Assembly (NCBI RefSeq): GCF_048403405.1
Contig: NZ_CP183129.1
Origin: Escherichia coli
Lineage (GTDB): Bacteria; Pseudomonadota; Gammaproteobacteria; Enterobacterales; Enterobacteriaceae
DNA: 64,000 nt
Direction: 5' to 3' (one strand)
Below the pieces are notes generated by a model. It was not told where the DNA came from. It was given only the letters and a program-made list of their open reading frames with translations, and did no database searches. Both the position numbers and the translations under genes were made by a program. This document shows, in pieces, positions 59,850 through 63,536 of the stretch; the stretch's first letter is position 1; every line of letters begins with the position of its first letter.

Positions 59850-59960
59850 AAAAACATTAAGTTATGACGAAGAAGAACGGAAACGCCTTAAACCGGAAAA
59901 TTTTCATAAATAGCGAAAACCCGCGAGGTCGCCGCCCCGTAACCTGTCGGATCGCCGGAA
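59850..59960 (-). other. lambda cos site (cosB-cosN-cosQ); 12-nt cohesive end at 59926-59937
   Basis: Minus strand reads ...CCGACAGGTTACG-GGGCGGCGACCT-CGCGGGTTTTCGCTATTTATGAAAATTTTCCGG...; cosN lies 189 bp from Nu1 start as in lambda. Confidence 0.9.
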
Positions 59961-60136
59961 AGGACCCGAAAAATGATAATAATTATCATCTACATATCAC
60001 AACGTGCGTGTACGCCATCAAACCACGTCAAATAATCAATTATGACGCAGGTATCGTATTAATTGATCCGCATCAACTTAACGTAAAAACAACTTCAGAC
60101 AATACAAATCAGCAACACAGAATACGGGACAACCTC

Positions 60137-60331
60137 ATGTCAACGAAGAACAGAACCCGCAGAACAACAACCCGCAACATCCGCTTTCCTAACCAAATGA
60201 TTGAACAAATTAACATCGCTCTTGATCAAAAAGGGTCCGGGAATTTCTCAGCCTGGGTCATTGAAGCCTGCCGTCGGAGACTAACGTCAGAAAAGAGAGC
60301 ATATACATCAATCAAAAGTGATGAAGAATGA
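60137..60331 (+). CDS. small basic protein, lambda right-end ORF (possible ribbon-helix-helix DNA-binding fold)
   Basis: 64 aa MSTKNRTRRTTTRNIRFPNQMIEQINIALDQKGSGNFSAWVIEACRRRL...; the 155-aa ORF-track call spans cos and is probably an over-extension. Confidence 0.55.
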   Translation: MSTKNRTRRTTTRNIRFPNQMIEQINIALDQKGSGNFSAWVIEACRRRLTSEKRAYTSIKSDEE

Positions 60332-60581
60332 ATATCCCGGTTTCTTTACCTCCCCTCCCACCCCGCACAGGACTGGCGAGCGTGTGGGACAAATATGTGA
60401 GTCATAAACGCCTTATCCTCAGAAATGCAGTTGGCATCCGAACAGGACGATATTGTAAATTCACCTAATTACGAGGCATTGCAGTAGTTGAATTGTAGTT
60501 CTGTATTAGCCTGACAGTGACAGAATGCGATATTGACTCTGTCACAGGTGAAATAGTTTGAATGGTTAGCAGTTATGGTGA

Positions 60582-60788
60582 TCAGTCAACCACCAAGGAA
60601 TAATCCTTCGAATTCTTATCGTGCTTCACCAACGCTGCCTCAATTGCCCTGAATGCTTCCAGAGACACTTGATGTTCTATACATGCAATTACAACATCCG
60701 GGTAACCCATCGAAATGGTGCTATTAAGCATAGTTTTTACACGAATCTGCTCCTGGGAGGGGGCATCAGTGTATTGATCTTTATGCAT
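60582..60788 (-). CDS. hypothetical 68-aa phage protein (lambda right-arm accessory ORF)
   Basis: [57 protein letters not shown]... Confidence 0.5.
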
Positions 60789-61083
60789 TTTGTCGCTCCA
60801 TGCGTTTGCTCTTCACTTGCGGCTAAAAATATAACGTCAAATCACTCAGCATGAAAGAGTGAAAGTTTCAGCGCGTTTCCCTTACATAATCTGTCATTTG
60901 TATTCTCTTCAGGCATACCGGAAAGACTAGGTATTGTCACACAACCAATACCATCGACAATCGAGATTTATATCTATTCGGTAATGTTTAAATATAACAA
61001 AACCCCGTAAAAACGAGGTTTATGGGTAATTTGTATTGTTGAATAGCATCTGATGAGAAATTGATGCTAATACTATAAACATA

Positions 61084-61257
61084 CTAGATTAAATCAATCT
61101 TGATATCATAGCTTTCAAGACCAGTCATTTTTTCCCGTGCAGTAAACTGGATACTGGTAACTTCTTTCCCGGTCTTTTTCTTAAGCTCAATGATTTTTTT
61201 TGTTATATATTCAGAAATATCTGCTTCTGTTTTTGTTTTTAACTCTTCAATGTTCAT
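61084..61257 (-). CDS. GnsA/GnsB-family small protein
   Basis: 57 aa from MMNIEELKTKTEADISEYITKKIIELKKKTGKEVTSIQFTAREKMTGLESYDIKIDLI; recalled similarity to GnsB of Qin. Confidence 0.7.
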   Translation of the reverse strand: MNIEELKTKTEADISEYITKKIIELKKKTGKEVTSIQFTAREKMTGLESYDIKIDLI

Positions 61258-61429
61258 CATTTCCTCTTTTAGTCTGTTATGACTTTCCTGGTACACAGTA
61301 GTGTCAATTATATGGAGCAAACGTATAAAAGATAAGATGAAACATCGCAATAATCAACATACGACGGTCTAAATTTCACACAAACAGATAAAGATGATTA
61401 TCATTTATTATCAATGCATTAGAATCAAA

Positions 61430-61660
61430 TCAATTCAAGAGTCTCATTGCTGCTTCCAGAATTTCTTCTGAAGTTACATGTCGATCCGCTGCTACATAAA
61501 TGACTTTATGATCTCCGGTCAGAGATGGAAACCCTGCAGCCATTACAGTGAGGTGTGTTGTTTCGCCATTTGGATATTCACGCATGATGGTGTTAACTCC
61601 GGTCATCACTGGCACTACCATTGCTGGTTCAGAGTTAAAAAAAACTATTATTTTTTTCAT
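61430..61660 (-). CDS. hypothetical 76-aa protein (prophage moron region)
   Basis: From MKKIIVFFNSEPAMVVPVMTGVNTIMREYPNGETTHL...; no recognised motif. Confidence 0.45.
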   Translation of the reverse strand: MKKIIVFFNSEPAMVVPVMTGVNTIMREYPNGETTHLTVMAAGFPSLTGDHKVIYVAADRHVTSEEILEAAMRLLN

Positions 61661-61931
61661 AATGTTACCGTAATATGTGAGTATCCATCGACTAGACACT
61701 AAGCAAAAAAGCTCCCGAAGGAGCCTTCATTTTCACTTTCTTAAATCTAACGACAGACGGCTAACATTTAAGTATTGTGAAATATTATCAAATGTAATCA
61801 TCATTGATTTACAAAAGATACATTTTGCCCCGAAAGGATTCCTGTCAGAAACATCAAAAGATGATGTTCTATACTGAGAACCATGGCAACACGGGCATCT
61901 AAAGTGAATATGGTTTGTAATATTTTCTACC

Positions 61932-62144
61932 TCAAAGTGCCACTACATGAACAGCCGCGGGGCCTTTAGGTCCGTTCTCAATACCAAATTCGACTTCCTG
62001 ATTCTCAGTTAACGTTTTGAAATCGTTGCTCTGAATAGCTGAGAAATGGACAAACACATCTTTGCTACCATCTTTCGGCGTGATGAAACCAAAACCTTTT
62101 TCAGGGTTAAACCATTTCACTAAACCAGTCATTTTGTTAGACAT
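61932..62144 (-). CDS. cold-shock-domain protein (CspA family; CspI/CspB-like prophage copy)
   Basis: [38 protein letters not shown]... with RNP1 motif KGFGFI. Confidence 0.9.
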
Positions 62145-62147
62145 CAT

Positions 62148-62508
62148 TATTACCTTTTGAAGAAGTTAGCCCTTGGGCAGAATGGTCCGAAAAAAAAATA
62201 TCAGAGAGAAAAACCAACAAGGAAATCTCAAGAGGTACAAATAATAAATTTATAACAATGACTGCTTCAGATAATTTTGTAACAAACCAGAACACCATTA
62301 ACGCATGATTAACCAACCATAGCAAGGATTACTTTTGTAAAGAAAAACACACGAATGAAACAATAGCTTTATTTATTAATAAAACGTGTCATTCTGTCTA
62401 ATGACCTTTTATCTTACCCTTAAGATTTCAAGGATTTTGACTCATGGAAGAGTCCTTTTTATTTAAATTTCACATTCAGCGCTAAAAATAATCCGATTTA
62501 ATATTAAT
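62148..62508 (-). promoter_or_regulatory. long AT-rich 5' leader of the csp gene
   Basis: About 360 bp non-coding AT-rich region upstream of the csp start, as typical for CspA-family mRNAs. Confidence 0.45.
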
Positions 62509-63006
62509 CTACATCTGATATTTTTTATCTCTTAAAGATTCATAAATCCGTTGACAAGTCACTCCTGCGATGTAGCGTTTGTCAGCAATTTCAGCATAAA
62601 GCTGAGCTTCTGCTGCAATATCTCCGAGCATGTTGGTGAGCATTCCTTCGGCGGCTTTGGTTGTTTTGCCTCTGACGGCAGCGGCAAGATTTGCGGTATG
62701 CTGCGCTGCGTCAAGGCGTATGGCATATTTTGTTGCTTCGGCACGCAGCTGGTTAACACTATCAGACAGATCAGCAGCCCTGGCAGAAATTTCAGCGGCT
62801 TTCTGTTGTGCATCTTTAACAGCCTCATCACGGGATATAGTTCGCCCCTGTTCAATTATTCGAGCAGCAAATTGGACATTTACCTCTTGAGATAATTCGG
62901 CAGCATCACGCTCCGCCCATTTTTTTTGCCATCCTCTGTCGCTCCAGACATTACCTACGACAAATCCTACCAACACGAGCAAAATCACCGTGAATATCTG
63001 ATTCAC
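62509..63006 (-). CDS. Rz: i-spanin Rz
   Basis: 165 aa, N-terminal [20 protein letters not shown] then coiled-coil; 4-bp overlap with endolysin gene. Confidence 0.85.
62559..62828 (-). CDS. Rz1: o-spanin Rz1 embedded in Rz (+1 frame); start approximate
   Basis: Embedded ORF with lipoprotein-type signal [11 protein letters not shown] and Pro-rich mature part. Confidence 0.65.
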
Positions 63007-63536
63007 TGTTCTATCCCCCAGCAGGTTAATGCACTCTCCTGGTCACGACGAATAACCTGACCGTAACAATTATTTGAACGAATGCGGCAATCACGTCCAC
63101 CGTCCTTTATCCACCAGCGAATCGCCTCGCATGCGCCTTTACGATCACCGGCATTAAGCCGCTTATAAAACGTCGACGGAAAACACTTACCAGGGCCAAT
63201 GTTATAGGGACAGAATGACGCGATACCGGCTTTCTGTGGCTCGGTCAGTGGAACTTTTATATTGCGCTCCACCCATGCCAGCGCCTTATCCCGCTCAATG
63301 GCGTTAACCTGGGCGCATTTTTCCTTCGACAGTTTCATTCCCGGAATAACAGGTTTACCGTCCACCATCGTTGCTCCCCGACAGATGGTCCATATGCCGG
63401 AGCCATCGCGGTATGCAGTGGTGTGATTCCCCTCTTTTTCATCCAGAAACTGATCGAGAATGTCAGGGGCAGGAGCACTGGCGGCAATCAGTGCCAGAAC
63501 AGCAGCCGACAGGCTGTATCTGATTTTTACGTTCAT
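63003..63536 (-). CDS. endolysin, GH24 lysozyme with N-terminal signal-anchor (SAR-type)
   Basis: 177 aa [22 protein letters not shown]...; lysozyme core motifs; recalled similarity to lambdoid RrrD/RrrQ. Confidence 0.85.

Follow-up and report, generated by a model that had tools for sequence, protein, structure and literature searches.

The 64,000-nucleotide stretch of Escherichia coli DNA analyzed here (contig NZ_CP183129.1; hereafter, the window) carries a lambdoid prophage, in reverse orientation and integrated beside prfC; 56.9–64 kb comprise the beginning of its left arm, its cos site and the distal part of its late region. The part extending from 59.7 to 64 kb very probably represents the cos site and the distal late operon of a prophage of the Qin family which is endowed with lambda-type head and tail genes. 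The features on which this reading is based are the following (aa, amino acids; ORF, open reading frame; TMD, transmembrane domain):

59203–59748, minus strand: Nu1 (nohD/nohA-type), small terminase subunit, 181 aa, first gene of the late head operon, annotated as a DNA-packaging protein
59749–60136, minus strand: predicted cos region, lambda-type terminase recognition and cleavage site, with cosN at 59926–59937, cosB towards Nu1 and the cosQ side opposite
60582–60788, minus strand: ybcW/lambda p79-type ORF, 68 aa (phrog_657, 5e-48)
61084–61257, minus strand: gnsB (GnsA/GnsB family), accessory (moron) gene, 57 aa (PF08178, 2e-33)
61430–61660, minus strand: ynfN, 76 aa (phrog_3425, 1e-55)
61733–61921, minus strand: ymcF/ynfQ, small cold-shock protein, 62 aa (YmcF-like, PF23641, 6e-33)
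61932–62292 (coding sequence 61932–62144), minus strand: cspI with a cspA-type thermoregulator 5' leader (CSD domain, 2e-31)
62509–63006, minus strand: rzpQ, i-spanin (DUF2514), 165 aa, N-terminal TMD (PF10721, 2e-38; phrog_312, Rz-like spanin, 3e-58)
62559–62813, minus strand: rzoQ, o-spanin lipoprotein, 84 aa, in the +1 frame inside rzpQ, lipobox LTSC (phrog_11621, Rz-like spanin)
63003–63536, minus strand: rrrQ-type GH24 endolysin, 177 aa (PF00959, 3e-24), with an N-terminal signal-anchor-like segment

The cos site and the Qin-type late genes

The cosN core GGGCGGCGACCT was found, as its reverse complement, to have one exact match in the whole window, at 59926–59937 on the minus strand, and an identical cosN is also present in Qin, DLP12, PhiR63_1 and PhiR12_1. 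This match is accompanied by cosB (R3-I1-R2-R1, between cosN and Nu1) and cosQ flanks and by the cognate terminase genes, A adjoining Nu1 on its downstream side; with the sub-sites assessed as one block, this combination identifies a predicted lambda-type cos. Nu1 itself is identical to lambda Nu1 at 179 of 181 positions, to DLP12 NohD at 180 and to Qin NohA at 175. The cohesive end begins at 59937, 189 nt away from the A of the Nu1 start codon (59748), exactly as claimed in a preliminary description of this DNA; this distance is 190 nt in lambda because of a 1-nt deletion which constitutes the sole difference between lambda 1–193 and the window. By analogy with lambda, terminase would nick this cosN and leave 12-nt cohesive ends.

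In K-12 Qin, the genes follow the order nohA-ynfO-ydfO-gnsB-ynfN-ynfQ-cspI-rzpQ/rzoQ-rrrQ-ydfR-essQ-cspB-cspF-quuQ, and the prophage shares this order and orientation at 91–98% DNA identity. Similarly, most residues of the encoded proteins are identical to those of their K-12 counterparts: GnsB (53/57, with PF08178 matched over its full length, 1–54 of 54), YnfN (48/51, the K-12 protein being shorter), YmcF/YnfQ (59/62 with YnfQ), CspI (70/70), RzpQ (149/165), RzoQ (79/82) and the lysozyme (165/177 with RrrQ). Judged by gene order and high DNA identity, the late region is thus of the Qin type, with two segments which differ. The identities and the order of these parts are directly established, and so is the fact that they are nearly identical to their equivalents in isolated phages and in Qin. 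The preliminary description had already recognized, at these very places, a GnsB-family gene, a CspA-family gene with a long leader, an Rz/Rz1 pair and a lysozyme, which have been confirmed by PF08178, RF01766, the LTSC lipobox and PF00959, respectively. Its comparison with Qin was equally sound, the block from gnsB to the lysozyme (gnsB-ynfN-ynfQ/ymcF-cspI-rzpQ/rzoQ-rrrQ) being 91.2% identical to K-12 Qin.

On a larger scale, lambda-type capsid-to-J genes are followed by the side tail fibre, pin, ydfK, ynfT and then prfC, with a DinI-like gene near. This succession has its counterpart at the ends of Qin (ynfT-ydfK-pinQ-tfaQ-stfQ-nohA), and K-12 Qin therefore seems to be what deletions have left of a phage of the present kind. 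The side-tail-fibre ORF (37059–39440, minus strand, 793 aa) is intact in the window; in the near-identical strain YDC107, it is found as two split pseudogene fragments. The strain carrying the window is thus closely related to YDC107, OU701452 and TUM1226, but distinct from all three.

Module joints and their distribution

Alignment with lambda, Qin and Rac, which the preliminary description had proposed as a check, placed the recombination junctions at 60346/60437, 60947–60954 and 63546/64202. The homologies are distributed as follows:

56939–59937: left end of lambda (lambda 1–3000), 98.2% identical
59220–60299: K-12 Qin nohA-cos-ynfO, 97.7%, cosN present
59938–60346: right end of lambda (its last 409 bp), 96.3%; DLP12, 97.5% across cos
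60347–60436, no strand: 90-bp segment without counterpart in lambda or DLP12, joint between the cos and ybcW modules; mEp460, HannyBb and Tritos are homologous from 60364
60437–60954: ybcW module, 83% to lambda and DLP12, 97% to mEp460
60947–63546: Qin block from gnsB to rrrQ, 91.2%
63547–64201: 655 bp without counterpart in K-12 Qin or mEp460, both of which have a short ydfR directly next to the lysozyme; found in 2H10, PhiR63_1 and PhiR12/PhiR5
64202–67615: Qin from ydfR to Q, 93.4%

Two further features lie in this part of the window:

60137–60331, plus strand: ylcI/ynfO-family ORF (DUF3950), 64 aa (Pfam PF13132, 5e-20; NCBIfam YlcI_YnfO_N; phrog_949)
61000–61021, minus strand: terminator-like hairpin, a 9-bp stem then a T-rich tail, just downstream of gnsB

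The product of the ylcI/ynfO ORF is identical at 63 of 64 positions to DLP12 YlcI and to the product of a lambda ORF; the latter, which is intact and unannotated, is located at 48109–48303 (complement) in NC_001416. The product of the ybcW-type ORF shows 81% aa identity to lambda p79 and DLP12 YbcW, and 97% to its mEp460 homolog. The ORFs at 60137–60788 are therefore lambda-like, as had been proposed. Between them, the alignments to lambda and DLP12 break at 60346/60437, although both genomes are contiguous there. The homology to mEp460, HannyBb and Tritos begins inside the 90-bp segment, which makes up most of a 46-aa ORF (60328–60468); these three phages have a different cos end, and the start of their homology marks the module joint. 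The hairpin at 61000–61021 is near the point where lambda homology ends and Qin homology starts (60947–60954).

The preliminary description had read this region as a mosaic, in which the right end of lambda had been joined to a Qin/Rac-type lysis and cold-shock cassette. A recent and strain-specific recombination producing such a novel hybrid would account for the fall of lambda identity from 96% to 83% at 60346/60437, for its end at 60954 with Qin homology resuming at 60947, and for the presence of a 655-bp segment which has no counterpart in K-12 Qin. However, the junctions are not unique to the strain and have been found in other phages and genomes: they are shared with the 2H10 phage, the CFT073 prophage, 251 genomes and PhiR63_1, the latter in one continuous alignment (98.8% identity over 59700–64000, unbroken). 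Such continuous identity to a single known phage is precisely what the preliminary description had named as contradicting its view. Furthermore, K-12 Qin already possesses the lambda-type nohA-cos-ynfO segment, cosN included, adjoining gnsB; hence, lambda homology does end at 60954 as had been described, but the cos/Nu1 block is not foreign to Qin. The Rac component has to be abandoned, since blastn of 59700–64000 against the whole K-12 Rac prophage (1410000–1433100) returned no match at E ≤ 1e-3. Collectively, these data make a recent hybrid scarcely credible and, on sequence comparison, the boundaries are old module joints common to the lambdoid gene pool.

The arrangement is indeed already known: phage genomes with its exact composition have been deposited, and hundreds of E. 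coli chromosomes carry it in annotated form. In 251 of 5426 complete E. coli genomes, 80% or more of the region is found at a single place; among these is CFT073, whose prophage is 99.4% identical to the region. The 2H10 phage is 99.8% identical from 60683 on (60683–64000), its record being cut at 60683 and not at cos. Over 53704–66589, PhiR63_1 is 97.4% identical, and it covers 90% of 39–64 kb at 96.3%.

Lysis genes and the 655-bp segment

The stretch 59700–64000 is 100% identical in four complete E. coli genomes. One of them is YDC107, whose identity to the window covers only 53.7–64 kb, the side-tail-fibre region being different. Beyond the window, YDC107 and TUM1226 (100% identical over 59.7–64 kb) encode the same protein accessions, among which are two genes of the late operon:

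63858–64409 in window-equivalent coordinates (63858–64000, its 3' part, in the window), minus strand: long ydfR (DUF1327), 183 aa
64414–64629 in window-equivalent coordinates, strand as the late operon: putative class II holin, phage-21-type, 71 aa (Pfam 'Bacteriophage P21 holin S', PF04971, 1e-33)

The holin begins with MKSM, a possible dual start, and is identical to DLP12 EssD at 66 of 71 positions and to the Qin holin at 68. Given its length (about 70 aa), its two TMDs, its dual-start motif and its match to the P21 S family, the protein encoded by these 100%-identical genomes qualifies as a predicted class II holin or pinholin. It is followed by ynfU, cspB and cspF, a layout which agrees with K-12 Qin, and then, about 2 kb past the holin, by the Q antiterminator gene (66532–67284, window-equivalent), whose product shares 232 of 250 residues with Qin Q. 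Looking beyond base 64000, as the preliminary description had advised, has thus located both holin and Q in these relatives.

The same description had reported that no holin lies within 110 bp upstream of the endolysin. This is correct, and the window indeed contains no holin; in addition, the ydfR-family gene is called a pseudogene ('incomplete; missing C-terminus') by the Prokaryotic Genome Annotation Pipeline (PGAP). Both observations would fit a defective lysis cassette, with a holin lost or displaced and a decayed ydfR, in a prophage as cryptic as Qin. However, an intact 71-aa P21-type holin is located 877 bp upstream of the lysozyme start codon in the 100%-identical genomes, ydfR and an oppositely oriented 86-aa ORF standing in between. 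The holin is therefore not missing, and its apparent absence results from the window edge and from the inserted gene pair. Similarly, the pseudogene label was rejected, as ydfR is an intact 183-aa ORF which aligns with 2H10 gp52 and PhiR63_1 free of indels and is covered by phrog_2091 along its entire length (4e-111 over residues 1–183; PF07041, 7e-42 over residues 1–112). This label is probably an annotation artefact due to comparison with the short 103-aa YdfR of K-12. The same layout being also found in the sequenced phage records 2H10, PhiR63_1 and PhiR12, a defective cassette is highly improbable. Literature searches on ydfR/DUF1327/rrrQ, on ydfQ with endolysin and on the ECOR13 phage set retrieved no publication dealing with these genes or with PhiR63_1.

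Downstream of the holin, the N-terminus of the lysozyme is organized like a signal peptide (n-h-c) and ends in small residues (ASA, APA); it could thus direct export via a cleavable Sec signal peptide, making the protein a soluble periplasmic enzyme instead of a signal-arrest-release (SAR) endolysin. A proline at position +1 blocks signal peptidase I. Cleavage at both candidate A-x-A sites of the lysozyme should be prevented, because each is followed by Pro. Furthermore, the hydrophobic core is weak (residues 9–26, an 18-mer, have a mean Kyte-Doolittle hydropathy of 1.6 and are 50% G/A/S/T), as in SAR domains. Starting at the N-terminus, the lysozyme also aligns collinearly with phage 21 R and RrrD, including from residue 31 with the structures of the phage 21 lysozyme (3HDE) and RrrD (4ZPU), and has the triad E35-D44-T50 (E-8-D-5-T) with the same numbering. 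Finally, it is partnered by a P21-type holin. A cleavable signal is accordingly unlikely and, with such a holin, a SAR endolysin fits the pinholin/SAR-endolysin pathway summarized in PMC6139136.

The spanin genes complete the cassette. A TMD-containing i-spanin together with a lipoprotein encoded out of frame and wholly embedded within its gene corresponds to a two-component embedded spanin of the Rz/Rz1 type, an architecture described in PMC6139136.

Nothing in the data speaks against reading the region as the distal late operon of a Qin-family prophage, though this reading has its limits. As the window stops at 64000, the holin and Q were read from 100%-identical relatives rather than in the window; the collection contains no genome which matches the window exactly over 30–55 kb or over its full length; and SAR behavior of the lysozyme is predicted from its sequence.

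The gene pair inserted between holin and lysozyme overlaps the 655-bp segment (63547–64201, window-equivalent), which holds the C-terminal extension of YdfR and a small ORF, designated ORF86. This segment is lacking in K-12 Qin and mEp460, and is present in 2H10, PhiR63_1 and PhiR12/PhiR5 and, among complete E. coli genomes, in about 6%. Its features are:

63650–63910 (ATG, 86 aa) or 63644–63910 (GTG, 88 aa), plus strand, against the late operon: ORF86, small protein (WP_001306174.1, PGAP; phrog_2572, 1e-53, full length)
63929–63965, plus strand: candidate terminator of the ORF86 unit, a GC hairpin then T8, 19 nt after the ORF86 stop and inside the ydfR coding sequence of the other strand

The oppositely oriented 88-aa ORF noticed in the preliminary description upstream of the endolysin is thus present, as the GTG form of ORF86. 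A GAGGTG motif is located 5 nt before the ATG, and ORF86 and the long ydfR converge, their 3' ends sharing 53 bp. The putative terminator hairpin, read as AAAACGCCGC-aaactgctcatc-GCGGCGTTTTTTTT and kept in PhiR12, had not been listed by a hairpin scan because its loop exceeds 8 nt. ORF86 is intact and without indels in the PhiR12 lineage, which is 93% identical; a codon-position test for selection against this lineage had only 13 substitutions to work on, corresponding to 4 synonymous and 8 non-synonymous codons. Of 5426 E. coli genomes, 293–352 contain ORF86, as do eight phage records. Its protein homologs are essentially restricted to E. coli, with close relatives at 77–99% identity plus one weak Salmonella fragment, and no match was obtained in Pfam, NCBIfam or PADLOC. 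An AlphaFold (AF2) model predicts a three-helix bundle (pLDDT 73), for which Foldseek found no PDB fold match at E ≤ 0.001.

With a ribosome-binding site and a terminator of its own for ORF86, and with the YdfR extension, the segment might be considered as an independent accessory unit, more than inert filler, though we regard this as doubtful. Under such a proposal, it could possibly act as a regulator of lysis timing; alternatively, ORF86 could be a lysogen-expressed factor, convergent transcription modulating read-through from holin to endolysin.

Accessory genes, proposed working and known systems

The slot between Rz and cos, which contains bor and p78 in lambda, is occupied in the prophage by cspI-ymcF-ynfN-gnsB. 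The Rfam cspA thermoregulator (RF01766) matches 61886–62292 over the full model (1–428) with 112.3 bits, against a gathering score of 78 (E = 5e-29), and this match gives a cspI leader of about 148 nt. The csp-ymcF-x-gns order mirrors the chromosomal cspG-ymcF-ymcE-gnsA cluster named in bioRxiv 10.1101/2024.03.27.586906. That source, which cites Sugai et al. (2001), reports that unsaturated fatty acids rise and growth defects at low temperature are rescued when GnsA or GnsB is over-expressed. The four genes would therefore constitute a cold-adaptation cassette of morons, and the cspA-type leader implies that its expression may be cold-induced. Besides cspI and the genes cspB, cspF and ynfU between holin and Q, a further cold-shock-type accessory gene, ydfK, is located near the prfC-side end (~33.8–36 kb, placed by homology), adjoining the pin-type recombinase and the DinI-like gene, again as in K-12 Qin.

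Expression of the region, the lysis pathway and moron function are inferred from gene order, homology and the lambda paradigm. Late transcription would begin just downstream of Q, ~2.5–3.3 kb past the window end, and proceed leftward in the window. Q-modified RNA polymerase would pass the cspF/cspB region, the holin, ydfR, the lysozyme and rzpQ/rzoQ, then cspI-ymcF-ynfN-gnsB-ybcW and, in circular or concatemeric DNA, would go on through cos to Nu1/A and to the genes for head and tail. As suggested by homology with phage 21, the holin would depolarize the inner membrane, which would release the membrane-tethered lysozyme to degrade murein, after which the RzpQ-RzoQ spanin complex would disrupt the outer membrane.

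The region is a textbook case of lambdoid modular mosaicism and, as such, has little wider significance. Its practical uses are the junction map, the observation that Qin resembles a remnant, and two annotation notes, namely that the pseudogene call on ydfR is unwarranted and that lambda holds an unannotated YlcI-like ORF.

Among known systems, lambda (NC_001416) shares with the prophage the exact cosN, the YlcI-like ORF and p79/YbcW. Between Q and p79, however, lambda carries S105/S107, the cytoplasmic transglycosylase R, Rz/Rz1, bor and p78, none of which has a homolog in the prophage: R and the holin are unrelated to their prophage counterparts, and Rz is identical at only 38 of 153 positions. 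Lambda is also devoid of csp and gns genes. The lysis cassette of phage 21 and DLP12 (S21 pinholin, R21 SAR endolysin and Rz/Rz1) is closer, sharing with the prophage the holin family, the lysozyme fold family, the triad positions and, by prediction, the N-terminal anchor. Nevertheless, the prophage lysozyme is only ~34% identical to DLP12 RrrD (56/165), its spanins (DUF2514) belong to another family, and the two extra genes between holin and lysozyme contrast with DLP12, where both are adjacent.

Qin shares the late gene order, but has ydfO (DUF1398) in place of ybcW, and its short 103-aa YdfR abuts the lysozyme without the 655-bp segment containing ORF86 and the extension of the long YdfR. 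In addition, Qin has lost its head and tail genes, whereas the prophage retains a full lambda-type set. The closest known systems are PhiR63_1 (PV340573) and 2H10 (NC_049950, Glaedevirus), which differ from the prophage in this region by point changes only, PhiR63_1 being further diverged in parts of the tail region and from holin to Q. Both possess the same late region and gene content, including the long ydfR, the ORF86 segment, the P21-type holin, cspB/cspF and Q.

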